A stretch of DNA of 64,000 nucleotides from an uncultured Eubacteriales bacterium (GTDB lineage: Bacteria > Bacillota > Clostridia > Christensenellales > CAG-138): contig CADAPG010000001.1 of the NCBI GenBank assembly GCA_902789675.1, positions 23,859-87,858 of the forward strand, read 5' to 3'. The stretch's first letter is position 1; the number at the start of each line of letters is the position of its first letter. Of this stretch, positions 1 to 46,910 are shown in pieces. The notes below the pieces were generated by a model. It made no database searches. It saw only the letters and a program-made list of their open reading frames with translations, and had not been told where the DNA came from. The position numbers were made by a program, and so were the translations under genes.

Positions 1-168
1 GATGGAAAACTGACGGCGGGAGACGCGGCAATGGTGCTTCGAACGGTCGTAGGATTGTCTTATATGAACGCACCGATGCGCGCGGCCGGCGATCTCGACG
101 GAGACGGAGAAGTTACAGCCGCAGATGCGGCGAAGATCCTGCGCCTCATCGTACATATTGACACTTGA
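1..168 (+). CDS. 3' end of a dockerin-containing protein (5' part lies outside the window)
   Basis: Frame 1 is open from the window edge to TGA 166-168. The translation DGKLTAGDAAMVLRTVVGL...DLDGDGEVTAADAAKILRLIV shows two dockerin type-I-like loop+helix segments. Confidence 0.6.
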   Translation, partial: DGKLTAGDAAMVLRTVVGLSYMNAPMRAAGDLDGDGEVTAADAAKILRLIVHIDT

Positions 169-7815: not shown

Positions 7816-7850
7816 TAAAAAGCGCCTTTTGTCGGTAGACAAAAGGCGCT
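7816..7850 (-). terminator. Rho-independent terminator (minus strand), the original terminator of tRNA-Ser now separated from the gene by the prophage
   Basis: AGCGCCTTTTGTC-GGTA-GACAAAAGGCGCT hairpin followed by a T-run on the minus strand, immediately downstream of the orphan tRNA 3' fragment at 7857-7880. Confidence 0.7.
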
Positions 7851-7856
7851 GTTTCA

Positions 7857-7880
7857 TGGCGGAGACGGTGGGATTCGAAC
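7857..7880. repeat. attL core: 24-bp direct repeat TGGCGGAGACGGTGGGATTCGAAC (orphan 3' end of tRNA-Ser)
   Basis: Identical to 41678-41701. Identity ends on both sides (7856 A vs 41677 T; 7881 T vs 41702 C). Confidence 0.85.
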
Positions 7881-8019: not shown

Positions 8020-9132
8020 TTAACTTGCATTTTTGGACACGGTTTTGGACACGGTCGGCTTCTCGTCCTCATAGAACGCCTTCATGCGTTCGATATCCTC
8101 GTTTACATCCTGCGCGGCAAGATGCGTATAGATATCGTGCACGACTGCGGGCGTCGACCATCCGCCGACCTGCATAGTTGTTTTCTCTGTCCATTTCAGA
8201 TGGTAGGCAAGGGACGCAAACGAATGCCGCAGGCAATGCAAGGTGACGTCCGGCAGGCCGACTGCTGCGCAGATCCTTTTCAGATGCCGGTTGATCGTCT
8301 TTTCGCTGACATCGACGGGCAGGCGATCCAGAAGGTCACGCAGCCGCGGGATCATAACCGGAACGTCGCGGTGCGACAGATCTGTTTTATTCTGCTCCTT
8401 GCTGACAAGCCCGTTCTCTCCACGCACGACGGCGCCGCGCACGCGGATCATGGACCCGTCGCATTGTGTCAGCGCAAGGATCTCGGACATACGCAGCGAG
8501 TGCAGCGCGAGGAGGTACACAATTTCGCATTCGTCGCCTCGGATGGCGGGGAGCAGCTTCTGTATCTGCTCGTAATCAAGAAACGCGCGCTCGGATCTGG
8601 AGGACTTCGGAAGATTTACAACGGGCGGCGTCATCTTTGCGTATTGCATCGCGCCGGTGACGAGACGCCATGCGTTGATGACCGTCTTCGGTCGTACGCA
8701 TTCCGTTTCTTTGCTGATCATCACTTGCCACGGGATCTTGCTGACGGACTGATCCAGATACGCCTTGAAGCGCGTTTTGCGCATGGATTTATAGGACCGA
8801 ACCGTCGCAGGGGACAAAACGGCTTCGTTCTCATTGATAAACCGATCGATTATCTGTCCGAGCGTGTCCTTCGGGGCTTTGTTTGCCTGCTCGATCATGC
8901 CGGCTTTAATGGCACGGGCGCGGATATAGTAAGCCGCTTCGGTGTCTTCGGTGATCCATACGCGGTTGCCGTCGACCATGACACGCCCGCGATATTTCCC
9001 GGACTTCGTCAATGCGGGCGGCGCAACAGATACTTCGTCTTTCGGCTTCCGCTGGCGCCGTATGCGCTCCCCGCAGAAACGGCAAAAGACGGAGTCGTTT
9101 TCGATCTCTTTTTTACAATGCTTGCAAATCAT
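8020..9132 (-). CDS. int: Tyrosine-type phage integrase with N-terminal zinc-ribbon
   Basis: Catalytic pattern SLRMSEI (Arg), HCLRHSFA (HxxR), HDIYTHL (Tyr). N-terminus CKHC...CRFC. Adjacent to attL. Confidence 0.9.
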   Translation of the reverse strand: MICKHCKKEIENDSVFCRFCGERIRRQRKPKDEVSVAPPALTKSGKYRGRVMVDGNRVWITEDTEAAYYIRARAIKAGMIEQANKAPKDTLGQIIDRFINENEAVLSPATVRSYKSMRKTRFKAYLDQSVSKIPWQVMISKETECVRPKTVINAWRLVTGAMQYAKMTPPVVNLPKSSRSERAFLDYEQIQKLLPAIRGDECEIVYLLALHSLRMSEILALTQCDGSMIRVRGAVVRGENGLVSKEQNKTDLSHRDVPVMIPRLRDLLDRLPVDVSEKTINRHLKRICAAVGLPDVTLHCLRHSFASLAYHLKWTEKTTMQVGGWSTPAVVHDIYTHLAAQDVNEDIERMKAFYEDEKPTVSKTVSKNAS

Positions 9133-12832: not shown

Positions 12833-12996
12833 GTTGCGCAGACAAGGCGCTTGCGGTAATTGAGCTTATAGGAGCGGGAATCATTTCAATTCTGATAATG
12901 GTGGCGCTCGGATCGATCATCATGATACCCGGGAGGCTGTCAGACATTGCGGACGAATTAAGAAAAGCGAATAAGGGGAAGGAGAAAAAGCAGTGA
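12829..12996 (+). CDS. Small membrane protein (55 aa)
   Basis: ATGA overlap with the upstream stop. One TM helix (VIELIGAGIISILIMVALGSIIMI) and a basic tail. Confidence 0.45.
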   Translation: MSCADKALAVIELIGAGIISILIMVALGSIIMIPGRLSDIADELRKANKGKEKKQ

Positions 12997-14717
12997 GAGA
13001 CCGCGGGGAAGACGTACAATCCCAGGAGATCTTCGTAGACAACTTCGCGGGCGGCGGTGGGGCAAGCACAGGGATTGAGCTTGCTATCGGAAGAAGCGTT
13101 GATATAGCGATTAACCACGATCCTGCAGCGATCGCTATGCACAAGGTCAATCATCCGAACACAAAGCACTATACCGAGGACGTCTGGGCGGTGGATCCGG
13201 TGGACGCCTGTGCCGGGCGGAGCGTGGCGCTTGCGTGGTTTTCGCCTGATTGCAAGCATTTCAGCCGTGCGAAAGGCGGCAAGCCGGTAGATAAGAATAT
13301 CCGAGGTCTTGCATGGGTTGCGATCCGATGGGCGTACCTCGTTAGACCGCGCGTGATTATGATGGAGAATGTTCCGGAAATCGTTACATGGGGGCCGCTT
13401 GATAAGCACAACAAACCGATCCCGGAACGCGCCGGAGAGACGTTCAACGCCTTTGTAGGAGCGCTGACGGTTGGAATATGGGACAAACACCCTGCAATCA
13501 AGGAAATGTGTGATGCGCTGCAAATAGACCGAGAATCGTCTATAGCAAAGGATATTATCGCAAAAGGTCTCGGTTATCAGGTGGAGTTTCACAAAATGCG
13601 CTCTTGCGATTACGGAGCACCGACGTCACGGGAACGGTTTTATATGATTGCGCGCTGTGACGGTGCGCCGATCCGGTGGCCGGAGCCTACGCATGCGCCG
13701 AAGGGCTCGTTTGAGGTTCTTTCCGGAGAAAAGCAGCCGTACCGCACGGCGGCGGAGTGCATCGACTGGTCTATTCCGTGTCAGAGCATTTTCGAGCGTG
13801 AAAAGCCGCTTGCGGAAAACACTCTGCGCCGGATTGCCCGCGGTATCAAAAAATTTGTGATCGACAATCCGAACCCGTTTATTGTGACGGTCAACCACAA
13901 AGGCGACGGCTTCCGAGGTCAAGACATCGCGGAACCGCTCGGAACTGTTACAGCAAAGAACGGATACGGCGTCGTGGTTCCGACGATCATGTGCAACAAT
14001 GCAAACAACGTCGGAAAGCCCGCAGATTCGCCGCTGCCGACCGTAACGACCGGAAATAGGAATTTCCTTGTAGCGCCCTCGTTGATTCAGTACCATTCTG
14101 AACAACAGGAAAACGAGGTCCGAGGGCAAGAACTGACAGAGCCGATCCAGACGCTTGACACGCAAAACAGATATGCGTTATCAGTCGCGGCAATCATGAA
14201 GAACTACGCGGGCGGCTACTCCGGTGCTGGCAGCTCGGTCGAAGATCCTTTGCATACGGTTACAGCGACCGACCACAACGCCCTTTTGACGGCGCATATC
14301 TTAACGTTACGCAACAACATGGACGGACAGGAGCTTGACGAGCCGCTGTCAACGGTCACGGCGGGCGGCTTGCACCACGCAGAGGTCGAAGCGTTCTTGA
14401 TAAAGTATTTTTCAACCGGATCACCGAAGCTGGTGGACGAACCGCTTGACACCATCACAACAAAAGACCGCTTTGCGGTCGTGACGATCCACGGCGAAGA
14501 ATACGTTATCACGGACATTCGTATGCGAATGCTGCAACCGAAGGAACTGTTCAAGGCGCAGGGGTTTCCGGATAATTACATCATCGACCACGACGCAGAC
14601 GGCAATCCGTACCCGAAGAAGGAACAAGTGGCGAAATGCGGCAATGCCGTCACGCCGCCGACCGCGGCGGCGCTCGTTCGGGCGAATCTGCCGGAGTATT
14701 GCAGGGAGGCAGTATGA
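12993..14717 (+). CDS. DNA (cytosine-5)-methyltransferase with greatly expanded, internally repeated target-recognition region
   Basis: AAGGAG RBS then GTG 12993. Motif I FAGGGGAS, IV SPDCKHFS, VI MENVPE, VIII TSRERF, IX QPKELFKAQGFP, X CGNAVTPP. About 285 aa lie between motifs VIII and IX and contain six (E/D/S)P(L/I)xT(V/L/I)(T/D) repeats. Confidence 0.9.
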   Translation: MRDRGEDVQSQEIFVDNFAGGGGASTGIELAIGRSVDIAINHDPAAIAMHKVNHPNTKHYTEDVWAVDPVDACAGRSVALAWFSPDCKHFSRAKGGKPVDKNIRGLAWVAIRWAYLVRPRVIMMENVPEIVTWGPLDKHNKPIPERAGETFNAFVGALTVGIWDKHPAIKEMCDALQIDRESSIAKDIIAKGLGYQVEFHKMRSCDYGAPTSRERFYMIARCDGAPIRWPEPTHAPKGSFEVLSGEKQPYRTAAECIDWSIPCQSIFEREKPLAENTLRRIARGIKKFVIDNPNPFIVTVNHKGDGFRGQDIAEPLGTVTAKNGYGVVVPTIMCNNANNVGKPADSPLPTVTTGNRNFLVAPSLIQYHSEQQENEVRGQELTEPIQTLDTQNRYALSVAAIMKNYAGGYSGAGSSVEDPLHTVTATDHNALLTAHILTLRNNMDGQELDEPLSTVTAGGLHHAEVEAFLIKYFSTGSPKLVDEPLDTITTKDRFAVVTIHGEEYVITDIRMRMLQPKELFKAQGFPDNYIIDHDADGNPYPKKEQVAKCGNAVTPPTAAALVRANLPEYCREAV

Positions 14718-15525: not shown

Positions 15526-16103
15526 AGCTAAAAAGCATCGGAAAGCTGTGTACGTACCGAAAAGAGGTAAACATTCTGCAGAAGATAAATGATACCGGTA
15601 CAATCAGGCGGTATATCGGTGACGGTCATGCGTTTTACGAGGTAGGCGAGCTTGGCGACGTTGTTGATCTGGATATCATGCAGACGATCTTCGACGTTAA
15701 GAAAGAGGATCGCGCAAGCTGGTCATATAGAAACATGACCGAAAGCGTCTATGCGCCTTTAGAGGACGAATGCGCCGGCGAACAGATCTTGAGGGCAATC
15801 GATCTGCGTATGAAATGGCACGGACTTGAACTGATGCCGCTTTCGTACGCGGACGGGATCTGCTTTATCGACACGGACTACCTTGCGCCGATGCGCGACG
15901 AGATCAAAGAGGGCGGCGTCGGATTTTATAAGCGGGCGGGAGAGTCGATCGTGACCGTCAAGAACGGCATGTGTAAGGCGATTGCGTGCATTATGCTTTC
16001 AAAAGTTCCGGAAGCTGCGGTAGACGCTCTATATGAGATCTATCGTGCGATATCGCTGTACCGTGTGGAACCGTCAGAGACGGATGGCTTATCAGACCAG
16101 TGA
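15522..16103 (+). CDS. Hypothetical early phage protein (193 aa)
   Basis: ATGA overlap with the upstream gene. Coding-like composition; no motif recognised. Confidence 0.55.
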   Translation: MKLKSIGKLCTYRKEVNILQKINDTGTIRRYIGDGHAFYEVGELGDVVDLDIMQTIFDVKKEDRASWSYRNMTESVYAPLEDECAGEQILRAIDLRMKWHGLELMPLSYADGICFIDTDYLAPMRDEIKEGGVGFYKRAGESIVTVKNGMCKAIACIMLSKVPEAAVDALYEIYRAISLYRVEPSETDGLSDQ

Positions 16104-16107
16104 TTCT

Positions 16108-16296
16108 ATGCGTGCGATCATTAAGTATCCTGGATCAAAGTGGAGAATCGCCAAGTGGATCATCGATCATTTTCCACCGCATCATAGCTATCTCGAACCA
16201 TTCTTTGGATCCGGGGCCGTGCTTTTCACGAAAAAAAGAAGCAACATTGAAACCATAAACGATTTGGACGAGAATGTAGAAAAGGAGGAAACAGGA
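16108..16296 (+). pseudogene. N-terminal ~60-aa remnant of a Dam-like (D12 class) N6-adenine DNA methyltransferase, reading in frame into the next gene
   Basis: MRAIIKYPGSKWRIAKWIIDHFPPHHSYLEPFFGSGAVLFTKKRSNIETINDLD matches the family N-terminus and the SAM motif (FxGxG). The DPPY catalytic motif and the remaining ~200 aa are absent from every frame downstream. Confidence 0.65.
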
Positions 16297-17160
16297 ATGT
16301 CTTATCGGGTAAAGCAGCGCATTTTCTCGGGCGTTGTATGCGAACAAGAGATATTTTCTGTTTCATCTTCTCGTCAAAAGAAAACGCCGAAAAGCTATTC
16401 TATGAAGATCCGCTTTGAAAGCGACGAAGCATATGAACGATACAAAGACGGCGTTCGCCGCAGAAACTTTATCCGGATCATAAATGCAAATTATGATCCG
16501 GAATCGCTGTATATAACGCTTACATTCGACAAGGAAAACGAAGTACATACATTTGAAGAAGCGAGGATGATCAGGGATCTGTACTATCGCCGCTTGAAAT
16601 ATATGTACCCGGATTCTGTACCGTGCTTTGTCATGGGCCGAGGGAAAACTACAAACAGAATACACCTGCACATGATCTCAAAAGGGATCCCGAAAGAGTA
16701 CATCATACAACAATGGACATACGGCAGCATTGTCGACGTTCAGACGCTGCGCGAGCACAATTACTATAACAACATAGATTGCGGTGCTGATTATACGGCA
16801 CTTGCGAATTACTTATATGACCATTGGACGCCAGAGCAGGGCGGACACCATTATAAAATTAGTAAAAATGCCAAAAAGCCGGAAAAGGAAAAGCCGACGC
16901 AGCCGACAAGAGAATACTCGATTGATCATCCGCCGAGACCGCCGAAAGGGTATGTGTACACCGAGGGATATCAAACGGAGTACGGCTATATGCGGTTCAA
17001 ATATGTAAAGATACCGGAACATGACAAGAAGCAGGGTTCGAGAGGAAACCTCTTAAATACACCTTGTATATATGAAAGGTTTTGTGACGATGACGGAGGT
17101 ACCGGAGCGAGGAGATCGATGAAAGATCCTCCGCCGCGCCGCAGATCATCATTACAGTAG
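16297..17160 (+). CDS. HUH-superfamily rolling-circle replication initiator (Rep)-like protein
   Basis: AAAGGAGGAA RBS then ATG 16297. Motif I LYITLTF, motif II RIHLHMI (HUH), W-x-x-G-x-I-V-D-V, motif III candidate Tyr in ALANYLYDH. Lower GC than the flanks. Confidence 0.65.
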   Translation: MSYRVKQRIFSGVVCEQEIFSVSSSRQKKTPKSYSMKIRFESDEAYERYKDGVRRRNFIRIINANYDPESLYITLTFDKENEVHTFEEARMIRDLYYRRLKYMYPDSVPCFVMGRGKTTNRIHLHMISKGIPKEYIIQQWTYGSIVDVQTLREHNYYNNIDCGADYTALANYLYDHWTPEQGGHHYKISKNAKKPEKEKPTQPTREYSIDHPPRPPKGYVYTEGYQTEYGYMRFKYVKIPEHDKKQGSRGNLLNTPCIYERFCDDDGGTGARRSMKDPPPRRRSSLQ

Positions 17161-18561: not shown

Positions 18562-18912
18562 ATGGGAAAGGAAGCGACGCAAAAACACGGCGGATTCACG
18601 AGCGAGAATGCAAAGGAAATGCAGCTGAGGTCCGCGGAAAAGAAGAAGCAGAACAAGGCCGAGCGAATGGTCATGCGCGAAGTCGCGTTAAAACGTGTGA
18701 AGATGAAAGACCGGGCGGCTATCTGTGATGCTCTGATCGAGAAGGCAAAAAAAGGAGATGAAAAGGCAACGACGTTGCTTCTGCAGATCATCGGCGAGCT
18801 TCCGGACGCAAAGCAGAGTCTTGACGTCAACATGAACATTATATCGGATGCGGATCGAAAGCTGCTCGATAACGCAGCAAAACGATATGAAAACGCAAGA
18901 GATCCTTCGTAA
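18562..18912 (+). CDS. Putative terminase small subunit
   Basis: 116-aa basic/helical protein directly upstream of, and overlapping, the large terminase. There is no clear RBS at 18562; ATG 18619 is an alternative start. Confidence 0.45.
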   Translation: MGKEATQKHGGFTSENAKEMQLRSAEKKKQNKAERMVMREVALKRVKMKDRAAICDALIEKAKKGDEKATTLLLQIIGELPDAKQSLDVNMNIISDADRKLLDNAAKRYENARDPS

Positions 18913-20356
18913 AGCATGGGAAGATGAAGTCTCGTATTGCAAGGATCATCCGGAATACTTCGTAGATCACTACGGTCATATCGAAGACAAGGACACGCTG
19001 GAGTTCATCCCGTTTCGGATGTGGAAGGAGCAGCGGGAAGCGCTGAAATCCATTCATGCAAACCGGTTGAATTGCGTTATGAAAGCGCGTCAGATCGGTC
19101 TGACATGGCTCGTCCTGCACTATGCAGCGTACGTCATGTTGACGATGCAAGGTAGCACGGTCTTAGCGCTTTCACAGAGAGAGGACGATGCGAAGGTTCT
19201 GATAGTCAGAATTTGCACCATTTTTGAGCAAATGCCCGAGCTTGTGAGGCGGGATGAATGGTACGGCGCGCATCTGGAATCAACAACGGAAAGTGCGACG
19301 CTGACATTTCCAAACGGGCGGATAAGTGAGATCAAAGCGTTCCCTTCGTCACCTAATGCAGGAAGATCGATCACAGCGAACCTCGTCATACTCGACGAGT
19401 GGGCATTTCAGCAATGGGCGGAAGATATCTGGGCGGCGGCATTTCCGACGATCAACAGACCGACGGGCGGAAAGGTGATAGGGCTTTCTACCAACAAACG
19501 CGGATCGCTCTTTGAACAGATTTGGACCAAAGAGGGAAACGACTTCAATAAACTGTTCATCCCGTGGAGCGCGGATCCAAGAAGAGATAAGACGTGGTAC
19601 GAGAAAACAGAACGCGCTATCGGTAAAGAAAAGATGTGGTCCGAATACCCGGCGACGCCGGAAGAGGCATTGACGGTGCCGGGTGGGGCCATGTTCCCGG
19701 AGTTCAAGGACAGTACACACCTGACGGATTACATGCCGGACGGGTATGTATCGCGGTATATCTCGCTGGACTATGGCCTCGATGCGCTTGCGGCTCTATG
19801 GTACGCGGTAGATACGCGAGGAAGGGTAACGGTATACCGGGAACTGTATGTAAGCGGTCTGATCGTTTCGGCGGCAGCACAAGCCATTTTGAAAGCGAAC
19901 AATGGCGAGTATTATGACGCGATCTATGCGCCTCCGGATCTCTGGAACAGGAACCGAGATACGGGGCGCTGCTCCGCGGAGATATTCGCGGAAGCCGGAC
20001 TGCTGCTGACGCAGACAAGCAATGATAGAGAACAGGGATGGCTGGACGTCAAGGAATGGATTAAGCCAACCGAAGAAACGAACGAACAGACAGGAGAGAA
20101 GAAGATGGTCGCGCGCTTGCAGGTGCTACGCGGCGCGGCACCGGAGCTCATGCGGTGCATGAAAGCGATCCAGAAGGACAAAAAGAACCCGAACGACGCG
20201 GCAAAGGATCCGCACGAGCTGACGCATCTCCCGGACAGTTTACGGGCGTTCTGTGCGGGCAGACCGCAGGTGCCGATGATCCCGACTGTGCGGGATCCGT
20301 ACGATCCGAAAACGTACAACGATCAAATCAGCGATTTTATGGCATGGGGGACGTAA
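18887..20356 (+). CDS. terL: Terminase large subunit
   Basis: Start at ATG 18887 (MKTQEILRKAWEDE). Walker A-like KARQIGLTW, Walker B LVILDEW. 489 aa, positioned before the portal. Confidence 0.85.
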   Translation: MKTQEILRKAWEDEVSYCKDHPEYFVDHYGHIEDKDTLEFIPFRMWKEQREALKSIHANRLNCVMKARQIGLTWLVLHYAAYVMLTMQGSTVLALSQREDDAKVLIVRICTIFEQMPELVRRDEWYGAHLESTTESATLTFPNGRISEIKAFPSSPNAGRSITANLVILDEWAFQQWAEDIWAAAFPTINRPTGGKVIGLSTNKRGSLFEQIWTKEGNDFNKLFIPWSADPRRDKTWYEKTERAIGKEKMWSEYPATPEEALTVPGGAMFPEFKDSTHLTDYMPDGYVSRYISLDYGLDALAALWYAVDTRGRVTVYRELYVSGLIVSAAAQAILKANNGEYYDAIYAPPDLWNRNRDTGRCSAEIFAEAGLLLTQTSNDREQGWLDVKEWIKPTEETNEQTGEKKMVARLQVLRGAAPELMRCMKAIQKDKKNPNDAAKDPHELTHLPDSLRAFCAGRPQVPMIPTVRDPYDPKTYNDQISDFMAWGT

Positions 20357-20550
20357 TGGAAACAGTCATAGCAATTCTTTTAGGGATATGCCTTGTGCTG
20401 ACCGTGGAGAACACGATCATACTGCACGCGAAGAAAAAGGAGCATCCGAGGGAAAAGACGAGAGAAGAGGAGCAGCGGGAAGAAGAAGAAAAGGCCGATG
20501 CGGAAAACTGGAAGCGCGTCATGGGCTTTCACGGGAGAGATAAGGAATGA
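20356..20550 (+). CDS. Small membrane protein with Glu-rich tail (64 aa)
   Basis: GGGGGA then ATG 20356, overlapping the terL stop. One TM helix (VIAILLGICLVLTV). Confidence 0.45.
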   Translation: METVIAILLGICLVLTVENTIILHAKKKEHPREKTREEEQREEEEKADAENWKRVMGFHGRDKE

Positions 20551-22244
20551 TTGACCTGTCGAATGCAGACATGATTTGGAAGGCATACGAAGCCGGCCGG
20601 TCCTATAAAGACAAGATCGACCTCTACAAGACCGTAGAGGAAAACGAACGTTTTTATCTCGGCGACCAGTGGCATGGACTTGACGTGCCGAACATCATTC
20701 TGCCTGTCATCAATTATTCGAAGCGTTCGACGTCCATACTCGTCGCGAAGATCTCAGCGGATGACATAGCCGCAAAGATCACACCGTTTTTGACGGATGA
20801 AACGTCCGAAGATACCGCAAAGATGATCGGGCGAGAGCTGGACAAGATCGTTGAGATCCAGTGCATCAAGAAGCTGCTGAAGCGCGGGGTGCGCAATGCC
20901 GCGGTAGACGGTGACGGATGCATTTTTACCTTCTGGGACGCGGAGGCGCCGACCGGTCAGGACGCGAAAGGCATGGTGAAGGCCCAGCTCATCGAAAACA
21001 TCAATGTGTATTTCTCAAATCCGCATACATCGGACGTGCAGGGACAGCAATACATCATCGTTGCGCGGCGTCGGCCCGTAGAGGAAGTCCGAGAGAGAGC
21101 AAAGAAATACGGTGTCAAGAAAGACGACATCGAAGAGATCAAAGCGGACACAGACGAGAACCAGGGCGAAGAGTACGACGACAACACGCTTTGCACGTTA
21201 CTGACCGTACTGTTCAAGAAGAACGGATCGATCCACGCGGTCGAATGCACTGATAAGGTCATCGTCCGCAAAGAATGGAACACCGATCTGAAACGGTATC
21301 CGCTTGCATGGCTTCCGTGGGAGCAGAAACGCTCGAGCATGCACGGCGTCGCGGCATTGACGCACATGATCCCGAACCAGATCGCGATCAATAAGGTGTG
21401 GGCCGGTATCATCCGAACCATGGAGCGTTTCGGATGGCCTACGTTGGTTGTCAATCGAAACTTCATGCAGAAAGACCAAAAGACTGGGAAAACGATATGG
21501 ACAGGTCAGCCGGGCAGCATCATGCAGGTAGAAGGTCCGGTGCAGGACGTCAAGAATATCGCATCATACATCGAAGGCGCTCCGATCAATCCAAGCATCA
21601 CGGCGATCACGGGCGATCTCGCATCGCAGACGCGCGACACGATGGGAACAAACGACGCGACGAGCGGCAACGTACGTCCCGAAAACGCTGCAGCGATCAT
21701 AGCGCTTCAGACAGCCGATACGGTGCCTTTGGAACTGAATCGACAGAACTATACCGACTGGATCGAAGAGCTGTACAGGAACATCGTGGACATGATGGCG
21801 GCTAATTACGGTAAGCGCAAGATCGAATGGGAAGAAACGGATCCCGAGACAGGCAAGCCGACAAACGTCATGAAGAAATACGACTTCGACACGCTCGACT
21901 ATGAGAACCTGCGCATCGGCGTAGACATCGGCACGGCCTCGATGTGGAGCGAGATCACGCAGATGGAGACGATAAATAGCATCTTTACATCCGGCATCAT
22001 GGAAGATCTGCGTAAATTCAAGCTCTATCTCGAAACGATCCCGGAAAAGTACCTGCCGAACAAGGCGAAGCTGCTTGCGTACTGCGAAGAGCAGATGCAG
22101 GTATTTCAGCCGGAGCCGGAGCCGACGCCGACGCCGATCACGGGCAGCGCAGACATATTAAACGATCCATACGGCGAACAGCCGTTTGGAAATACACAAA
22201 TAGCCCCAGCCATAGGGCAGAAAGGATATCAGAATGCTTATTGA
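20547..22244 (+). CDS. Portal protein (SPP1 gp6-like)
   Basis: 565 aa. ERFYLGDQW motif near the N-terminus. Position between terminase and scaffold. Confidence 0.85.
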   Translation: MIDLSNADMIWKAYEAGRSYKDKIDLYKTVEENERFYLGDQWHGLDVPNIILPVINYSKRSTSILVAKISADDIAAKITPFLTDETSEDTAKMIGRELDKIVEIQCIKKLLKRGVRNAAVDGDGCIFTFWDAEAPTGQDAKGMVKAQLIENINVYFSNPHTSDVQGQQYIIVARRRPVEEVRERAKKYGVKKDDIEEIKADTDENQGEEYDDNTLCTLLTVLFKKNGSIHAVECTDKVIVRKEWNTDLKRYPLAWLPWEQKRSSMHGVAALTHMIPNQIAINKVWAGIIRTMERFGWPTLVVNRNFMQKDQKTGKTIWTGQPGSIMQVEGPVQDVKNIASYIEGAPINPSITAITGDLASQTRDTMGTNDATSGNVRPENAAAIIALQTADTVPLELNRQNYTDWIEELYRNIVDMMAANYGKRKIEWEETDPETGKPTNVMKKYDFDTLDYENLRIGVDIGTASMWSEITQMETINSIFTSGIMEDLRKFKLYLETIPEKYLPNKAKLLAYCEEQMQVFQPEPEPTPTPITGSADILNDPYGEQPFGNTQIAPAIGQKGYQNAY

Positions 22245-23019
22245 AAAAGCCAGTCAAGAGCAGGAAGACACGACGTTCGGAGAAGATTTCGACTGGGATG
22301 ATGAGCCCGACGAAGACGAAAATGACGAGCTCGACGAGGACGAAACAGACACCGAAGGTGAGGAAAACGACCACACCGAAGAACAGGAAGATGATGGCTT
22401 GACCGTGAAGTATAACGGTCAGGACAAGCATGTTGCAAAGGACGAGATCCCGGAGCTCGTACAAAAAGGATTGAATTACGATCATATTCATTCTGAGTTG
22501 GAGAGCATGAGAAGCGGCAATATGTACAGGTACATCAAGAAAGCCGCAGACAAGGCGGGAATGTCGCCGGAGCAGTTTGCAAAGGCCATGCAGGACAAGG
22601 AAGACGCGGATATCCTGAGCGCAGAAGAAGCCGCTATCCGAAAAGACCATCCGAACATGGACAACGCCATCATCCGGGAACTTGCCGAAGCGCGCGCAGC
22701 GAAGAAGCTGAACAACGCAAAGGCACAGGAAACGAGCGAACAGGAAAAGGCATGGGCCGAAGCGCTCAAGGAGTATCCGAATCTGACGCGGGACACCATC
22801 CCGAACGAGGTGCTGGAAGCCGTGGCGGGCGGCAAATCGCCGCTCCTCGCTCTGAAGGACAACGAGATTGCGCAGCTCAAAGCCGCGCAGGAAAAAGCCG
22901 CCATCGAAAAAAGAAATCAAAAGAATAAGGAGAAGTCAACGGGGTCTATGACCGGTTACGGGTCCGATGGCGACGAGATGGACGACTTCTTGAAAGGGTT
23001 CACCACAGGACAACGTTGA
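22234..23019 (+). CDS. Scaffolding protein
   Basis: Highly acidic N-terminus (DEPDEDENDELDEDETD) and a long helical/charged body. Lies between portal and capsid. Confidence 0.7.
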   Translation: MLIEKASQEQEDTTFGEDFDWDDEPDEDENDELDEDETDTEGEENDHTEEQEDDGLTVKYNGQDKHVAKDEIPELVQKGLNYDHIHSELESMRSGNMYRYIKKAADKAGMSPEQFAKAMQDKEDADILSAEEAAIRKDHPNMDNAIIRELAEARAAKKLNNAKAQETSEQEKAWAEALKEYPNLTRDTIPNEVLEAVAGGKSPLLALKDNEIAQLKAAQEKAAIEKRNQKNKEKSTGSMTGYGSDGDEMDDFLKGFTTGQR

Positions 23020-23035: not shown

Positions 23036-24097
23036 ATGGCAATAAACCTGATGAAAAAGTACGCGAAGCCGATCAGAAAGGCCTACGAGTACGAGAGCAT
23101 TCTCGCCGGTAAGACCAGCGAAGATTTCGACTGGGACGGCGTAAGAGCTATCATTTCCACGAGCATCAAGACTGAACCCCTGCAGAACTATAACCGGAAC
23201 ACAACCGGAAATAGGTTTGGCGAACAGAAAGAGGTTCAGGACGAGCAGCAGCTCATGGAGCTGCAGTGGGATCTCTCCGTACCTCTCACGGTTGACAAGG
23301 GCAATTACAAGGAAGGTATGGAAATGAAGACTGCAGGTGTGCTCGTGCATGACGAGATGAACGAGCAGATCAATCCGCAGGTCGAACAGTTGGCGATGGG
23401 CGAGTGGGCAAAACGTGCCGGTCAGTATCTCACCATCACCGACGACGATGACGGTAGCAAGATCCTCCTCGATCTGATGAAGGTCGAAGCAGCAATGGTC
23501 AACAAGCGTGTTCCGAAAAAGAACCGCTTTGCGGCAGTCGACGCAAATCTCATGCCGTACCTGCGTTCCGCATTGACGAACTGCAACGATATTACCGACA
23601 AGATGATCCTGCAGGGCATCGTCGGTCGTATCGGAACGCTGAACATCCTCGAAGTGCCGCACGGCGACATGCCGAAGAACTGCCATATTCTCGCATGGCA
23701 GAAAAAGTCCGTGTACCTTCCGAAGACGATCATGGATTGCGAACTGCACGACAAGCCGGAGAACTTCAGCGGTCTGCTGGTGAACTTCCGGCACCGTTTC
23801 GGCGCGTTCGTCGAAATGAAATACTGCTGGGGCGTCGTCGCGGTTCTCGCAGCGTCGCAGCAGGCAACGGCGGTCACGCCGTCGACCGCGCGTGTACTCG
23901 ATCTGGAAAGCGGAGATACCGTGTACTACACGCTTGACGGATCCGATCCGCGCTACAGCAAGACGGCGGTCAAGGTCACTTCCGACACCACGATCTCCAG
24001 CACCGACGCGCCTGTCGGTACGGTCATCAAAGCGGTCACCTGGAACACGTCCAAGACCTATCCGTCCGACGTCAAGTCTGCGGTGGTCGCAGCGTAA
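23036..24097 (+). CDS. Major capsid protein with C-terminal Ig-like (chitobiase/hexosaminidase-C-like) extension
   Basis: 353 aa after the scaffold and followed by a strong terminator. The C-terminus DTVYYTLDGSDPRYS...VIKAVTW resembles the module in the host CotH lipoprotein. Confidence 0.7.
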   Translation: MAINLMKKYAKPIRKAYEYESILAGKTSEDFDWDGVRAIISTSIKTEPLQNYNRNTTGNRFGEQKEVQDEQQLMELQWDLSVPLTVDKGNYKEGMEMKTAGVLVHDEMNEQINPQVEQLAMGEWAKRAGQYLTITDDDDGSKILLDLMKVEAAMVNKRVPKKNRFAAVDANLMPYLRSALTNCNDITDKMILQGIVGRIGTLNILEVPHGDMPKNCHILAWQKKSVYLPKTIMDCELHDKPENFSGLLVNFRHRFGAFVEMKYCWGVVAVLAASQQATAVTPSTARVLDLESGDTVYYTLDGSDPRYSKTAVKVTSDTTISSTDAPVGTVIKAVTWNTSKTYPSDVKSAVVAA

Positions 24098-24841: not shown

Positions 24842-25195
24842 ATGACCGTACACGACATCATCAGTACAGCGCTTGCCGGCGAATATGAAGATATCGAAGA
24901 AGATACCGACGCGGTGCGGCATCTCATCAGATGGATGAACACACTTCTTGCGGAGTGTTTCAGCGCTGAACAGAACAGCAGACAAGCAGACGGAAAAGAA
25001 TTGCTGACGGAGATTCCTATGGTAAAGGAACTGTCCGAAGAGATACCATACAATGAAATGATGCTTCGTTTCGTTCTTCCTTACGGGATCGCGTGGAAAT
25101 ATGCTGAGCAAGATCAAGACATGAACCGCGCGCTGCAGTACCGCTCCATGTATGAGGACGCAAAGCACAGAGCAGGGGGTGCAGTATGGCTGTAA
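24842..25195 (+). CDS. Putative head-tail adaptor/connector protein (117 aa)
   Basis: Size, acidic helical composition and position after the capsid. Assigned by context only. Confidence 0.4.
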   Translation: MTVHDIISTALAGEYEDIEEDTDAVRHLIRWMNTLLAECFSAEQNSRQADGKELLTEIPMVKELSEEIPYNEMMLRFVLPYGIAWKYAEQDQDMNRALQYRSMYEDAKHRAGGAVWL

Positions 25196-27663
25196 CCGAC
25201 GTTAAAACCTATCAAGCATTTCGGGGCGTGGATTACTCTGCGTCCCCTGCTGTCATTTCAGAGGTACACGCGCAAGACATGAAGAATATGTACGTCGGGA
25301 GTGACGGCGTAATGCAGAAGCGTCCTGGATGGCATATCTGCATGACGTTTCAAGTCTCCCCGACGAATCCGACGCGGCTGCCGATCTACGGAATCCACTA
25401 CATGAGATTCGCACAGGGCAGCGGTATGCTTTTCATCCACGCAGATGATCGCTTGTATCGCGTCCTCTGTTCGCCGGAGATCCGACACGTTGACGCTGCA
25501 TCGGGCGATGTGCCGTACTATAGGACAGCAGACGATAAGCCGACGGCGGCACTTGCAGCGTGGATTGCTCGATATGTCGGAGGTATAGATGACGGATGGG
25601 AAGAATGGCAGATCCGCAACATGGATGTTGACGGTGACGGTCAAGTGACGCAAGCAGACGCGGACATCGTGACGGGGCTTGTCACAGGAGCAATCGACCC
25701 GGACACGCTTGACAGAGGTATCACGCCGAATTCGTATAAGCTCGTTCTCGATTCAGAAGGGAACGCAGCTGTTCTGAACAAGGCAAAGAGCATTGCGTTT
25801 GAGCATGACGGCAAACTGTACATCATCGACGGGAAGAAGTATTTCGTCGTAAAGCAGACCGGCAATTACCTCACCGGCGTTGACTATGTGTGCGACGAGG
25901 TCGAGGGAAAGATCCCGACGGTCAACATCAACGCGCATTATGACTACGACGATCTTAACGCGCAAGGCACGAACACGCCCGGTTCTGAGAGCAATCCCGG
26001 CGTGTGGAACGAGGGAGATAAGTACGATTCGCCGAACATGATTCAGCCGAAGCAGATCTGCACGTTTATCGCGGATAAGAACCATACCGCGTATCAGCTT
26101 ACAGGAAAAAACTGTACGGTTCATAAGGTCGAGGTTCGGAGAGAAGTAGCGTACGTGCGGAATAATGACGGCTCCTATTCTCCGTATCCCGACGTGTGGA
26201 TTGATCCGGCACCGCGAGCATACATGCTCTACAGATGGGAAGAGATTCCCGATCACGACGGAGTGGAAAGCCACAGCGAGAATCCTGCACAGATGTTCTA
26301 CAAAGTGGTGAACGGTGAGGAAGGCGGATCATCGCCGTTTATTCCTCTTCCTTTTAAGAATGTGGGAAGCAACACGACGATTTACGTCTGCAAGAACGGA
26401 ACGCAGAATCCGACAACGGATCAGCCTATGATGACCACGTTCAATCTCAAAGAAGGCGAGGCAAACATCCGCGTCACGTACACCGTTAATGACGAAGAAG
26501 AATTCGACGATGATGATAAGGACAAGACCGTCCGCGGCGCGTCCACGATTGCTAAGTGTTCTATCGTAACAAAATTCGGTTATTACAACAGGAACAGATT
26601 CTTCCTGTCTGGGAATCCCGATCACAAGAACGAGGACTACATGAGCGAGATCGACGATCCGACGTACTTCCCGAAGAACGGATGGACAAAGATCGGGTCT
26701 GAGAACACCGCGATCATGGGGTATCTTCACTACGGGTCGGAGATGGCTATTGTAAAGGAAGACAACGGCATCGACGCGACGGTGTATATGCGGTCTGCGA
26801 TCCTCACCGAAGAGAATGATATCCTCTTCCCAGTTCAGCAGGGAGCGCAGGGCGTAGGCGCGATCTCCAAGCATTGTCTTAAGACATTGAAAGACGAACC
26901 GCTGTTCCTCGCGAAAGAAGGCGTGTACGCGATCCAAGGCACGAACGCATCGCAGGAGCGCACGATCCCGAACAGATCCTTCTACATTGACAAGCGGCTG
27001 CGGAGAGAGATCGATTCGCAATGCATTGCCGAAGTGTTCCGCGATTACTACATTCTTGTGAATCCGACAACGGGTCACGCATGGGTCTGCGATTCGCGGT
27101 ATCAGAGCTTGCCGCCAGGAACGAATGACAGAAACCGCATCTATGAGTGGTACGTGTGGGATAACATCCCTGCAACCTGTATGACGGCAACGGATGATTT
27201 CCTCTACTTCGGAACAAAGGACGGACGGCTGTGCGCGTTCAATTTCGATTGGGACAATCCCAAACGGTGGACGGACGGCGCGGAGTATGTCAACGGTTCG
27301 ACCAAGCTGCACAAGTGGCATCCGTACGATTACGGGTATCAGATCGAAGCGTACTATATCACGAAGCGCGATCATCTCAGCGCAATGGATTACAAGAAGA
27401 CCATGCTGAACGACGGCGGCGTGATCACGCTTCAGCCGCACGATCAAAGCTCTGCGAGTATTGTTGTATCGACGGACAAAGGATCATGGTTTGTGGATCA
27501 TATTCAAACGGATTCTGACGAGCCGTCCGTGGTGATCCCGATCAGGAAGCGATTCAAGAACTTCGATTCGATTGAAACGCGCATCGAGAACAAAGAGATC
27601 CGCGAAGGGCTGTCCATCCTTGGATTACAGTACAGATATTATCTGACTACGAATAGGAGATAA
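25186..27663 (+). CDS. Large virion protein (825 aa), candidate tail tube/nozzle-type protein, carrying a dockerin-like Ca-binding segment
   Basis: Overlaps the upstream stop. aa 101-170 contain TAALAAWIARYVGG...DVDGDGQVTQADADIVTGLVTG. The rest is beta-rich with no recognised motif. Confidence 0.6.
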   Translation: MAVTDVKTYQAFRGVDYSASPAVISEVHAQDMKNMYVGSDGVMQKRPGWHICMTFQVSPTNPTRLPIYGIHYMRFAQGSGMLFIHADDRLYRVLCSPEIRHVDAASGDVPYYRTADDKPTAALAAWIARYVGGIDDGWEEWQIRNMDVDGDGQVTQADADIVTGLVTGAIDPDTLDRGITPNSYKLVLDSEGNAAVLNKAKSIAFEHDGKLYIIDGKKYFVVKQTGNYLTGVDYVCDEVEGKIPTVNINAHYDYDDLNAQGTNTPGSESNPGVWNEGDKYDSPNMIQPKQICTFIADKNHTAYQLTGKNCTVHKVEVRREVAYVRNNDGSYSPYPDVWIDPAPRAYMLYRWEEIPDHDGVESHSENPAQMFYKVVNGEEGGSSPFIPLPFKNVGSNTTIYVCKNGTQNPTTDQPMMTTFNLKEGEANIRVTYTVNDEEEFDDDDKDKTVRGASTIAKCSIVTKFGYYNRNRFFLSGNPDHKNEDYMSEIDDPTYFPKNGWTKIGSENTAIMGYLHYGSEMAIVKEDNGIDATVYMRSAILTEENDILFPVQQGAQGVGAISKHCLKTLKDEPLFLAKEGVYAIQGTNASQERTIPNRSFYIDKRLRREIDSQCIAEVFRDYYILVNPTTGHAWVCDSRYQSLPPGTNDRNRIYEWYVWDNIPATCMTATDDFLYFGTKDGRLCAFNFDWDNPKRWTDGAEYVNGSTKLHKWHPYDYGYQIEAYYITKRDHLSAMDYKKTMLNDGGVITLQPHDQSSASIVVSTDKGSWFVDHIQTDSDEPSVVIPIRKRFKNFDSIETRIENKEIREGLSILGLQYRYYLTTNRR

Positions 27664-37828: not shown

Positions 37829-40369
37829 ATGGCACTTTACAAATACCATTATATAGAGCTTGACACGAAGCGCAGCCCGCGTATCAGCCTGCAGAACATC
37901 GTTGCCGGGGAGACCGGGAACGTGTTTTGGATTACATTTTCGAACAATAATGAGATCGTCGACATGTCCGAAAAATCGGACGGAGAATTTCTCTATCGCG
38001 TGTCGCTCCGGATCAGGTCCAATCTCGGCGTGCGCAGGCAGGATTCTGACGATCCGGACGGCGGCATTACGTTCATCGAAGCACAGACAGGCGATCACGG
38101 CAAGATTCATATTCTCTTGTCCGCGGATGCGTATACGTCCGGGAAAAACCGCTGCGTCCTCGAGATCTACTCAAAGCGCGTAGAGGAAGACGATACGCTT
38201 ATCTGCTCTGCGGAGTGGACGTTTTCCGCTGAGGAGAATCCGACAGGCGAAAACAAGGGACTTGTCTATCCGATGATGGCGTACTACGAGCAGCTTGCGA
38301 AGTCCTGGGCGACTGGCGGCACCGGCAAACGCGAAGGCGAGGACATCGACAATGCGATGTATTTCAAGACCCTTGCGGAACAGGCGGTGCGGGGCGGCAT
38401 CATCGATCCGACCTTTGCAACGTGGTTGAACGCGCATCTGTCCGATTTCTTGTCCGCGATCAGCGGTGACGCTGACAAATGGCTTGCCGAACACATCACG
38501 AATCTGAGCAATCCTCCGTTGGACACATCGCTGTCATTGTCGAATGCGGCTGCACCGGCGAATCTGCTTGGATTTCTCGTCAATTATCTTGGCGCGTCTG
38601 TATATCGTTCCGATAAAAAGACCGCAACGACAACATACAACGCGATCATCAAATCGAACGGGAACATTGAAGCGTCTACATCCTCAAGCGCGCATCTGTC
38701 AATTTACCCGGTCGATGCCAACAAACTGTACGTCCTTTACGGTCTTTCCGTGAGAGTGCCATCTACTGCGACCGCGCTTGCCGTATATTCGACATCGTTG
38801 TTCGATGGCGAAACGACGCTCACAGGGAATACGATTGTCGTTCCAAGTACGACCGCCGCAACGCTTACGAATTATAACGTGACCTTCCGACCGACCTCCG
38901 ACGGATACATTTACATTTATTCGTACGGCAATTACAACGCGCTTGAGTTGTACGATGGCGTTTATCGTTCGACAACACTTGACAACATCTCCGTATCGAT
39001 TAAGCCGTCCGAATCGTATGATGTTTCGTTTGATGACATCTTCAATAAGTACGAATCTGCGTTCATTGACGATTTCACAGCGCGCGAATCGTTTGTTGAT
39101 GCCGACCATCCGTACACCATCCTTGGAAGTGACGCTGATGCGCCGACAATCACAACGGGAACTGGCGCGACGAGAACGGGCGCGTCGGGCATGGCGACAC
39201 TTGCGTACAGCCGCACGTTTGACTCGTTCCCGTATATCTGCCTTATCGGGCGCGTTGCAAGCGCAGCGCAAATTGTCAAAGTGTTTGACGACTCAAACAG
39301 TCTTACTGCCGGTGCTATCTCTATCGGCGTGAACGGCGGCGTTATGTATAACGGAGATACATACGGAAACATCCACATAAATGCAGCTTATGTTGTGCTG
39401 GTCATAAATTCCGATTCTGTAACGGTCTACGATGATTCCGGGATCGAGGTACGGATTCCCGTGTCGTACACATCCGACAAGCCGATGAACATCGCGCTTG
39501 GCTTCGGCGCGAACGTAGACCGCTTATTCGGTTACGGCTCGTTCGTTGAGTTTGTCAAACGCCCGATGCAGACGCTTGATTTCAATCGGTGCGTTGCGCT
39601 GAACGAAGGCGCTGATAGTCTTTCTTCTGCCAAATCTGTTATTCGTTTTACGCATGGAATTTGGAGTAACAACTCAGCAGTTGCGACGGTGTACTATAAG
39701 CCGTCCGACAATCCGTATATGGAGTCTGTTCAAGGGCTGTCAAATAATCCGTGCATCAAATGCGTCTGCGATTACTCGGAGGATAACGGGTACAGGACGG
39801 AAATCGGCATCACGCCTGTAAAAGGATCGCTCAAGGGCAAGATTGGTGGTCTACAGAGATTCCGCACAAGCGCAGATTACTACATGGCATCAGCAGACAA
39901 CCCTGGAACGAATGATTTCTACACGTACATCTTCCAGTTGCACGATGCAAACTTTGCTGTGCAGGGATGGAGGGATGGTCCTCCGTTCACGCTTCGAGTG
40001 TACAACGGCAAGCTGTCTGCTCACGTATGCTACATCGACAACGGTGCTGTGCCACAGGGCGATAATGTGCATACTGTCAACAGTTACGATCTCTGTGATT
40101 GGGAGATGGATAAGTGGCATCACATTGAGGTCGAAGCGCGTATCGGATGGCGTAATGTCCTTGCACCGAGATTGATCGTCCGCGTTGACGGCATCGAGCG
40201 GCTGAACATCGAAACGCCGCTTGGCTACAACATCGTGTCGAGCGGTGGGTATGTCAATACACACTTTGGAAACTATGTTCCGCAATGGCACGATGCCGCG
40301 TACACCACAAAACACAGCGAGGTCATCGTTACGAACATTAGATGGGAGGGTACACAGAATGTCAACTAA
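37829..40369 (+). CDS. Tail fibre / receptor-binding protein (BppU-like N-terminus, fibre motif, C-terminal jelly-roll/polysaccharide-lyase-like domain)
   Basis: 846 aa. SWATGGTGKREGEDIDNAMYF is a motif common in Firmicutes phage fibres. The C-terminal YIFQLHD...WHHIEVEARIGW...VRVDG pattern resembles ConA-like lyase/glucanase folds. Confidence 0.7.
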   Translation: MALYKYHYIELDTKRSPRISLQNIVAGETGNVFWITFSNNNEIVDMSEKSDGEFLYRVSLRIRSNLGVRRQDSDDPDGGITFIEAQTGDHGKIHILLSADAYTSGKNRCVLEIYSKRVEEDDTLICSAEWTFSAEENPTGENKGLVYPMMAYYEQLAKSWATGGTGKREGEDIDNAMYFKTLAEQAVRGGIIDPTFATWLNAHLSDFLSAISGDADKWLAEHITNLSNPPLDTSLSLSNAAAPANLLGFLVNYLGASVYRSDKKTATTTYNAIIKSNGNIEASTSSSAHLSIYPVDANKLYVLYGLSVRVPSTATALAVYSTSLFDGETTLTGNTIVVPSTTAATLTNYNVTFRPTSDGYIYIYSYGNYNALELYDGVYRSTTLDNISVSIKPSESYDVSFDDIFNKYESAFIDDFTARESFVDADHPYTILGSDADAPTITTGTGATRTGASGMATLAYSRTFDSFPYICLIGRVASAAQIVKVFDDSNSLTAGAISIGVNGGVMYNGDTYGNIHINAAYVVLVINSDSVTVYDDSGIEVRIPVSYTSDKPMNIALGFGANVDRLFGYGSFVEFVKRPMQTLDFNRCVALNEGADSLSSAKSVIRFTHGIWSNNSAVATVYYKPSDNPYMESVQGLSNNPCIKCVCDYSEDNGYRTEIGITPVKGSLKGKIGGLQRFRTSADYYMASADNPGTNDFYTYIFQLHDANFAVQGWRDGPPFTLRVYNGKLSAHVCYIDNGAVPQGDNVHTVNSYDLCDWEMDKWHHIEVEARIGWRNVLAPRLIVRVDGIERLNIETPLGYNIVSSGGYVNTHFGNYVPQWHDAAYTTKHSEVIVTNIRWEGTQNVN

Positions 40370-41129
40370 AGTATATGTAGGCGAAGCGATCAAGGACGAA
40401 GACAACAAAGCCCGCGGCGGCGAGCCCGGCGATCAGACTGGGCGCGAGGTGTGCGTTCGCGAATGGAAGATGAACCCGCAGGGTTGGCGAGTTCTGCGCC
40501 CGAAGGACCCGGCGGTCGCTGAGAAGATCGCCTATGACATGCGAGCAGCATGCGCGAACCCGTTCATCGGGTACGATCAAACGGACCGCAGGACGTTGTA
40601 CGAAGTGTCCAAGCCGCTCGACTTCGATTGCGCGCGCGTCAAGACGCCATGCGAGTGCGACTGCTCCTCACTCGTTCAGGTGTGCGTACTGTACGCGGGT
40701 GTCAAGGTCGGCAGCTTCAATACAGCGAGCGAAGCGGCTGCGCTGCTCAAGACCGGCGCGTTCATCGAGCTCACCGGGGAGAAGTACACCGAGTCACCGG
40801 ACTTCCTCCGCACCGGAGACCTCCTCGTGACGAAGGTCAAGGGGCATAGCTGCGTGGTCCTGAACGACGGACCGAAGGCAGAACCGCTGCCGGATCCGGA
40901 GCCCGAACCTGAGCCCGAGCCATCGAACGCATACGTGCTTGTCAAGGGCGGGTCGGTCCGTGTCCGCGATAAGGACGGCGTGTATGGTCGCTGCATCGGC
41001 ATCGCCCACAGAGGCGAAGAGTACCCATACATCGAGACCGCCCCTTCCGGCTGGTACCGGATCGCGTGGCGCGGCACGCAGGCGTACATCACGAACAAAC
41101 CGCGCTATACGGAGGTACAGAATGGCTGA
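40359..41129 (+). CDS. Endolysin: NlpC/P60-like cysteine peptidase domain, (PE)n linker, C-terminal SH3b-like domain
   Basis: GGGAGGG RBS then ATG 40359. Candidate nucleophile in CECDCSSLV and His in KVKGHSCVVL. PDPEPEPEPEP linker. SH3-like YVLVKGGSVRVRD...GWYRIAW. Confidence 0.7.
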   Translation: MSTKVYVGEAIKDEDNKARGGEPGDQTGREVCVREWKMNPQGWRVLRPKDPAVAEKIAYDMRAACANPFIGYDQTDRRTLYEVSKPLDFDCARVKTPCECDCSSLVQVCVLYAGVKVGSFNTASEAAALLKTGAFIELTGEKYTESPDFLRTGDLLVTKVKGHSCVVLNDGPKAEPLPDPEPEPEPEPSNAYVLVKGGSVRVRDKDGVYGRCIGIAHRGEEYPYIETAPSGWYRIAWRGTQAYITNKPRYTEVQNG

Positions 41130-41647: not shown

Positions 41648-41677
41648 AAAAAATATGCCGATATTATCGGCATATTT
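41648..41677 (-). terminator. Phage-borne hairpin terminator placed directly downstream of tRNA-Ser in the lysogen
   Basis: ATATGCCGATA-T-TATCGGCATAT palindrome (41653-41675), followed on the minus strand by TTTTTTATT. It abuts the tRNA CCA end at 41678. Confidence 0.6.
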
Positions 41678-41701
41678 TGGCGGAGACGGTGGGATTCGAA
41701 C
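41678..41701. repeat. attR core (24 bp), forming the 3' end of the intact tRNA-Ser
   Basis: Identical to 7857-7880. Confidence 0.85.
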
Positions 41702-41771
41702 CCACGGACCGGCTCATCACCAGTCAAACGATTTCGAGTCGTTCTCGTTATGACCACTTCGATACGTCTCC
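41678..41771 (-). tRNA. tRNA-Ser (anticodon CGA), long variable arm, encoded CCA
   Basis: Manual fold of the reverse complement: acceptor GGAGACG/CGTCTCC, anticodon stem AACGA/TCGTT with loop CTCGAAA, variable-arm stem GACTGG/CCGGTC, T-arm GTGGG-TTCGAAT-CCCAC, then G-CCA. Confidence 0.9.
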
Positions 41772-41812
41772 ATGCCCGATTAGTATAACGCATCAAATCA
41801 AAAAAAGCAATA

Positions 41813-45475: not shown

Positions 45476-45555
45476 TCAAAATTTCAAACAATAGTATACA
45501 TTAGGTCTATCTATTTTTCAAGCGATTTGTTATAATCAAAGCGGAGGTGATTTGC

Positions 45556-46908: not shown

Positions 46909-46910
46909 TG

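Follow-up and report, generated by a model that had tools for sequence, protein, structure and literature searches.

Accessory adhesion domains, such as immunoglobulin (Ig)-like domains, BACON domains, and carbohydrate-binding modules (CBMs), occur on virions as host-derived binding modules of structural proteins: they are not needed for assembly and vary between close relatives, and a weak multivalent adherence has been proposed for them. Dockerins are the calcium-dependent plugs by which the enzymes of cellulosomes attach to scaffold proteins. Binding modules are also common to phage receptor-binding proteins and to the cell-wall-binding domains of endolysins. Here, we describe a dockerin-like module inside an 825-amino acid (aa) tail protein, encoded by a prophage of an uncultured Eubacteriales bacterium on contig CADAPG010000001.1 (the whole analysed stretch of this contig, 64,000 nucleotides, is called the window; feature coordinates are given in Table 1). 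We compare the module and its carrier with dockerins and tail proteins already described, and we weigh what the module could do on the virion.

A dockerin-like insert in the tail nozzle protein

In the tail nozzle of phage T7, gp12, the N-terminal strands form part of the platform, and the seven-bladed propeller that comes next is arranged radially (PMC6702177). The 825-aa protein of the window is almost certainly the tail nozzle of a temperate podovirus. Its AlphaFold2 (AF2) model (pLDDT 81, pTM 0.81, 57 sequences) matched more than 20 independent podovirus nozzle structures in a Foldseek comparison with the PDB (E 4e-18 to 1e-12, probability 1.00), with cyanophage A4, E1004, HRP29, Kp9, SU10, and T7 gp12 leading (E 4e-18 to 3e-13) and PhiM1 among the others. 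The matches in BFVD were named "stabilization protein," "tail tubular protein B," and "P22 Gp10," and the protein matched PHROG 3287 (virion structural protein) with an E value of 7e-22. Its propeller-blade motif resembles designer propellers. By secondary structure, the insert follows the first four-strand unit (strands 49-95) and precedes the second (203-238); read together with the description of T7 gp12 (PMC6702177), this locates it between propeller blades. Within the insert, AF2 predicted helices at residues 121-131, 140-146, and 156-167, with block pLDDT values of 87-92 across them.

The translation of positions 25486-25695 gives residues 101-170 of the nozzle protein. Here, the loop D147-x-D-x-D-G-x-V-x-x-x-D158 is the canonical second calcium loop of the module. 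When the window was translated in six frames, the pattern D.[DN].DG.[IVL]...D had just two matches, one in the host dockerin (91-126) and one in this module (25624-25659), while about 0.01 are expected per shuffled window. The first repeat keeps the G-D-V residues and the helix, and it has Leu123 at the Asp-12 position and a four-residue PYYR insertion. The match of the Pfam profile Dockerin_1 (PF00404; curated gathering threshold, 22.9 bits) to the phage protein or segment covers profile positions 16-53 alone, that is, the second repeat. All this agrees with a preliminary description of this DNA, made from the sequence only, which had reported exactly this peptide within a phage virion protein and had read it as a canonical second loop preceded by a degenerate first loop with its helix.

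Among the 5.8 billion proteins searched, there were 56 homologues, and the window protein was aligned with 37 close ones (alignment A1, 38 sequences). Dockerin_1 matched 24 of these 38 sequences (E<0.01). Three states of the module could be distinguished at the insertion site. In the first (type a), a canonical two-repeat dockerin occupies the same alignment columns in 11 of the 37 homologues (e.g., P0011, GDMNGDGDITAADAVMILQAL...SDVDGDGKVTEEDAKTILRMVVG); all 11, plus P0003, also have a precomputed PF00404 match. The second, to which the window belongs, includes 22 sequences (the window and 21 homologues) in which the first loop is interrupted, with the consensus GDVP[YF][YF][RK]..D.PTAA..I.RYV...WQ[IV][RK]NMD[IV][DN]GDGxVT..DA. 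In the third, an unrelated module of ~90 aa stands at the dockerin site (P0026, P0029, P0030, and P0035), or the site is empty (P0037 and the distant ~600-aa homologues). Among the 33 dockerin-bearing sequences, which diverge down to ~50% identity, loop 2 and the helices are strictly kept: D147, G152, and D158 are present in 33/33, D or N at position 149 in 33/33, and D151 in 32/33. G107, D108, and V109 are each found in 32/33, and position 123 is Asp in 16/33. In the more distant P0111 and P0103, the first loop is gone, and helix 1 and loop 2 are retained.

Because homologues carry canonical two-repeat dockerins at exactly the same site, we consider the module very probably a true, if diverged, descendant of type-I dockerins with one canonical calcium site. 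The window segment scored 33.0 bits against a hidden Markov model (HMM) built from the canonical site dockerins of the 11 type-a homologues, while the maximum among 1000 shuffled window segments was 10.1 bits. When a profile was made from the window-type modules alone, solved dockerins ranked first among the PDB sequences (E 2e-7 to 1e-2), beginning with C. thermocellum GH9 and CelS, followed by R. bromii Amy12/16 and R. flavefaciens; most matches to this profile span the second repeat only. A generic EF-hand, which the preliminary description had considered as an alternative, was rejected: the segment scored 13.2 bits with EF-hand_1 (cut-off, 25.4) and 9.9 bits with EF-hand_5 (cut-off, 25.9), far under both thresholds, and the relatives carry canonical two-repeat dockerins. 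Family-wide, the best E value was 3.4e-15 for Dockerin_1 vs 0.003 for EF-hand_1.

The nozzle family as a whole is large, with 4945 clusters (50% identity) at E<=1e-3 and 1786 at E<=1e-30. A dockerin-like insert was present in 7 of the best 150 cluster representatives, always at residues ~117-172, and a Pfam scan of ten other long nozzle representatives gave no recognisable insert. On these sequence comparisons, the dockerin is a lineage-specific gain and not a general trait of the nozzle family. Judging from the alignment, the insertion site would be a display position that is exposed and open to exchange: it holds a dockerin, another ~90-aa module, or none, the last being the case of the distant ~600-aa homologues P0040 and P0042. 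CBM_5_12 domains were found in 9 of the 38 A1 members, in other loops of the nozzle (e.g., P0010, P0012, P0013, P0006, P0019, and P0020).

Dockerins also recur outside the nozzle. In a sister phage (contig SRR6261385_4250), the nozzle P0012 carries a canonical dockerin and CBM_5_12, and the endolysin (L012:11557-12480) is composed of NlpC/P60, Dockerin_1 (49 bits), and an SH3-like domain. The dockerin of this lysin is 61% identical, ungapped, to that of the nozzle of the same phage, and it is nearer to this one than to any other nozzle dockerin. The lysins of the window phage and of three other relatives, the latter plain NlpC/P60 proteins, have no dockerin. Among 50,697 deposited phage records, just seven contain a similar dockerin. 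They include a CHAP+SH3_3+Dockerin lysin of a gut phage contig with the dockerin at its C-terminus (MT835815, L015:8906-10180), a protein with BspA-type leucine-rich repeats (LRR) and a C-terminal dockerin (MT836339, L014:1730-3079), and a 362-aa protein of Ruminococcus phage NatCom_28274 (L013:538-1626) that ends in a dockerin and weakly matches CBM26.

Nowhere in the full-text literature searched did we find a dockerin described in a tail protein or lysin of a phage, and the preliminary description had likewise known of no such adsorption strategy. The incidental mentions concerned BLAST similarity in a Vibrio phage gene, a CBM fold in an E. coli phage, and a putative ANME virus contig with dockerin genes. 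Host-derived adhesion modules on virion proteins are a known kind of finding, and a dockerin on a phage tail is, in the literature found, a new member of it whose function is predicted from sequence.

Possible adhesion to host cohesins and its alternatives

The host itself encodes a dockerin protein, as the preliminary description had claimed. At 7.7 kb from attL, the window begins with the C-terminus of a 678-aa protein, whose dockerin scored 29.2 bits (fragment) and 30.8 bits (full protein) with Dockerin_1, over the cut-off. This protein belongs to the host DNA, because it is kept in a prophage-free contig from another sample (L010). The claimed closeness between the two modules was found too, the phage module and the host dockerin being 40% identical over 53 aa. 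The 678-aa protein also has a weak Peptidase_MA_2 match. The next host gene (165-3626, +) encodes 1147 aa with four lamin-tail domains (LTD), Fn3-associated/CHB_HEX_C domains, and a CotH kinase domain. The host is a spore-forming rumen Clostridia member: its flanks encode SpoIIID and an ornithine-fermentation operon, and one sample derives from a rumen metagenome scaffold (STEW19).

We propose, with a confidence just short of even, that the dockerin of the nozzle, derived from the host, would serve as an accessory means of adhesion and supplement the tailspike. Since a conventional enzymatic tailspike is also present, the dockerin would be an accessory adhesin and not the sole receptor-binding device. 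That the adhesion to the host is mediated by cohesins is, on the sequence evidence, conceivable but somewhat doubtful. If the nozzle is hexameric like T7 gp12, the tail tip would be encircled by six dockerin copies. Once the virions are released into the calcium-rich gut fluid, these dockerins would bind a cohesin at the host surface, on an anchoring scaffoldin or a cellulosome- or amylosome-like complex, and the virion would occupy this cohesin in the manner of an enzyme subunit. Through such reversible, multivalent adhesion, the tail would stay at the envelope for as long as the enzymatic tailspike works on the wall polymers. Binding would probably be single-mode, because just one repeat is intact. 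Adhesion is the best-supported reading of the tail-tip location, the exchange of the site with binding-type modules, the conserved calcium loop, and the reuse of a dockerin beside a wall-binding SH3 domain in a lysin. In a broader and more tentative form, a temperate podovirus lineage of rumen and gut Clostridia might have captured the cohesin-dockerin system of its hosts, the dockerin ring plugging the vacant cohesins of surface scaffoldins and some lysins using the same plug.

Several observations weigh against this proposal. The window copy does not reach the Dockerin_1 cut-off, either as the whole phage protein (16.6 bits, E 0.009) or as a 90-aa segment (20.8 bits, E 4e-4), so that the profile named by the preliminary description misses this copy, although it recovers the family and the segment fits the family HMM. 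The first repeat has decayed, leaving the copy with a single canonical calcium loop, and EF-hand proteins stand close behind dockerins against the profile of window-type modules alone. The proposal also presupposes that the module faces outward on the nozzle hexamer. The enzymatic, depolymerase-type tailspike could explain adsorption unaided. Among close relatives, P0037 has no module and others have a replacement, so tail assembly, and perhaps infection too, can do without it. Dockerins require calcium to fold, and the cytoplasm in which virions assemble contains little of it. For many dockerins outside cellulosomes, no cohesin partner is known. Finally, no cohesin was found in ~45 kb of host DNA (~30 kb of window flanks and ~15 kb of adjoining sequence), which encodes housekeeping proteins, transporters, the CotH/LTD protein, and one dockerin protein.

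A cohesin encoded by the phage was rejected as the partner: the nozzle, 211-aa, 117-aa, giant, tailspike, and lysin proteins have no Pfam Cohesin match, and the tailspike N-terminus is BppU-like. The first of two functions suggested in the preliminary description, docking onto a cohesin of the host, is plausible but unproven: a dockerin homologue indeed lies on a virion protein, but neither the phage proteins tested nor the ~45 kb of host flank yielded a cohesin. The second suggestion, a virion decorated with host enzymes, is unlikely as worded, because enzymes bear dockerins and not cohesins.

Among the other explanations, the one that survives best, which we nevertheless consider unlikely, is that the module is a calcium-binding structural insert without an external ligand, stabilising or gating the nozzle, or a remnant dockerin that no longer binds cohesin. 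It would suit the degenerate first loop of the window copy (Leu at Asp-12 and the four-residue insertion), gone altogether in P0111 and P0103, as well as the score under the Pfam cut-off, the near parity of EF-hand proteins and dockerins against the window-type profile, and the lack of a partner in the phage proteins tested. It does not suit the strict retention of loop 2 and the helices over 33 diverging members, the fully canonical dockerins of the sister phages, or the recurrence of dockerins in phage lysins beside wall-binding SH3 domains. Moreover, the site holds unrelated modules or none in relatives, and therefore a core mechanical role is less likely.

We regard as rather improbable that the module, by analogy with the mucus adherence of Ig domains, attaches virions to free cellulosome or amylosome complexes or to scaffoldin-coated plant or starch particles, which would keep the phages at the feeding sites of their hosts. 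The CBM_5_12 modules co-inserted in nozzle homologues, the rumen origin of the STEW19 scaffold, and the dockerin protein of the Ruminococcus phage, which weakly matches CBM26, speak for it, but it still needs a cohesin, of which the DNA read gave no source; for this reason, it overlaps mechanistically with adhesion to the host surface.

Lastly, it is very unlikely that the dockerin binds a phage-encoded partner for virion assembly, e.g., to fix the tailspike or another tail protein onto the nozzle: the T7 fibre does attach between adaptor and nozzle (PMC6702177), and the N-terminal domain of the tailspike forms a conserved beta-sandwich of ~135 aa, but this domain resembles TP901-1 BppU, with no cohesin in the top 50 Foldseek matches of its model and no cohesin annotation among 39 tailspike homologues, the virion proteins tested have no Cohesin match, the tailspike N-terminus is 49% identical (alignment A4) between phages with canonical and degenerate dockerins, and an endolysin, which plays no part in virion assembly, has a dockerin too.

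Should the nozzle dockerin bind host cohesins, scaffolds of the cellulosome or amylosome type would be docking sites for phages, as receptors or co-receptors; the literature searched does not describe such adsorption through protein-protein contact for phages. Phage pressure would then be tied to the expression of the fibre- and starch-degrading machinery in rumen and gut, and the diversification of dockerin and cohesin specificities would find an explanation. It would also represent a natural cohesin-dockerin display on a virus particle, of interest for engineering. With its single intact repeat, the module would also be a natural test case for dockerins that bind in a single mode.

The prophage and its other genes

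The element spans 33.8 kb (window 7857-41701) and is integrated at tRNA-Ser. We consider it a bona fide prophage because of its integrase, the 24-bp att repeats at the tRNA-Ser 3' end, and an empty site: contig L010 matches window positions 1-7858 and 41675-47840 without the 33.8 kb between them. At the junction of L010 (14196-14758), there are 563 bp with a 137-aa open reading frame (ORF) and no counterpart in the window, possibly the remnant of another element. The prophage also encodes two DNA methyltransferases, one of C5-cytosine type (12993-14717, +) and one of D12-class N6-adenine type (16033-17160, +); the latter also has a weak REP_ORF2-G2P match.

The structural genes follow the order terminase, portal, scaffold-position protein, major head protein, 211-aa protein, 117-aa protein, nozzle, 3361-aa giant protein, 846-aa tailspike, and ELLD-type lysin, which is conserved in relatives (L007, L008, and L017-19). 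This is the layout of a podovirus morphogenesis module: the portal is of P22/T7 type, and genes for a tape measure or a tail tube are absent. The giant protein keeps its position and its size (3345-3906 aa) in the same relatives; it could be an internal or ejection protein that arose by fusion. Its residues 1443-1571 have a sub-threshold similarity to the PBECR3 nuclease (28 bits vs a 30-bit cut-off), and one relative has PBECR5.

The N-terminal beta-sandwich of the tailspike (~135 aa) matched TP901-1 BppU (4v96 and 3uh8) with E values from 3e-8 to 6e-6 (AF2 and Foldseek). In the tailspike relatives (P0061-P0096), the N-terminus is kept, and the C-terminus is swapped among GDSL esterase, GDPD, metallophosphatase, pectate-lyase/beta-helix, polysaccharide-lyase, and deacetylase domains, a sequence pattern that points to wall glycopolymers as receptors. 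The lysin ORF, 40221-41129 with its mechanical TTG start, overlaps the tailspike gene; the true start is likely the ATG at 40359, and the linker reads PEPEPEPEP.

Table 1. Positions (in the window) and strands of the features discussed
Feature	Position	Strand	Evidence or remarks
Host 678-aa protein, C-terminus (dockerin)	1..168	+	DGKLTAGDAAMVLRTVVGL...DLDGDGEVTAADAAKILRLIVHIDT, then stop; full protein L009:4469-6505
attL core, 24-bp direct repeat	7857..7880	.	TGGCGGAGACGGTGGGATTCGAAC; second copy at 41678-41701; empty-site homology ends at 7858
Prophage integrase	8020..9132	-	Weak Phage_integrase match; equals L009 14357-15469
Terminase large subunit; portal; scaffold-position protein; major head protein	18848-20356; 20547-22244; 22234-23019; 23036-24097	+	PHROG 2, 156, and 422; P22_portal in syntenic L008
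Tail nozzle protein (T7 gp12/P22 gp10 class, "tail tubular protein B"), 825 aa, dockerin carrier	25186..27663	+	AF2/Foldseek, BFVD, PHROG 3287
Inserted dockerin-like module, aa 96-180	25471..25725	+	After the first four-strand beta unit of the propeller and before the second
Degenerate first repeat	25504..25578	+	G107-D108-V109, PYYR insertion, T114ADDKPT120, helix AALAAWIARYV; aligned to GDVNGDGxITAADAALILRYL of type-a homologues
Intact second repeat	25618..25689	+	N145-M-D147-V-D149-G-D151-G152-Q-V154-T-Q-A-D158, then helix ADIVTGLVTG; Pfam-matched part
Giant virion-module protein, 3361 aa	27665..37750	+	Directly after the nozzle gene; PHROG 22978
Modular tailspike/receptor-binding protein, 846 aa	37829..40369	+	N-terminal beta-sandwich similar to the TP901-1 BppU N-domain
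Endolysin-like protein, no dockerin	40359..41129	+	ELLD E 4e-50, PE-repeat linker, SH3-like C-terminus like that of the L012 endolysin
tRNA-Ser(CGA)	41678..41771	-	ARAGORN; 3' end 41678-41701 is the attR core; empty-site homology restarts at 41675

Relation to known systems

With T7 gp12 and P22 gp10, the window nozzle shares the fold, a protomer centred on a beta-propeller (Foldseek E 1e-16 to 3e-13, TM ~0.43), and the position of its gene after the capsid and adaptor genes (PMC6702177), whereas the sequence identity is just 8-10%. The window nozzle family differs from them also for its exchangeable adhesion-type inserts (dockerin, CBM_5_12, or another module), none of which is reported for solved nozzles. 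The nearest nozzle homologue in an isolated phage is that of a Bacillus megaterium Pagevirus (Page_15 "virion structural protein"), with 26-30% identity over aa 455-765; that protein is 594 aa long, has no dockerin insert, and lies in a different surrounding gene order.

As in the type-I dockerins of C. thermocellum (CelS/Xyn10B), R. bromii (Amy12/Amy16), and R. flavefaciens, the module has the F-hand repeat, made of the D-x-D/N-x-D-G-x-V/I-x-x-x-D loop and an amphipathic helix; both repeats are present at the usual spacing in the sister phages, and the three-helix arrangement is predicted for the phage module. Unlike the dockerins of enzymes, it is internal in a tail protein that is assembled in the cytoplasm and has no signal peptide, and it does not stand at the end of a secreted enzyme. 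The first calcium loop of the window copy is degenerate, in contrast to type-I dockerins, so any binding would be single-mode.

The modules shared by receptor-binding proteins and endolysins have a counterpart in the sister phage SRR6261385_4250, where dockerins are found in both the nozzle and the endolysin, whereas the endolysin of the window phage is without one. Compared with the Ig-like, BACON, and CBM domains of other virions, the nozzle module would by analogy act as a cohesin-specific protein-protein plug and not as a glycan binder, and it is carried on the nozzle instead of the capsid or the tail tube.

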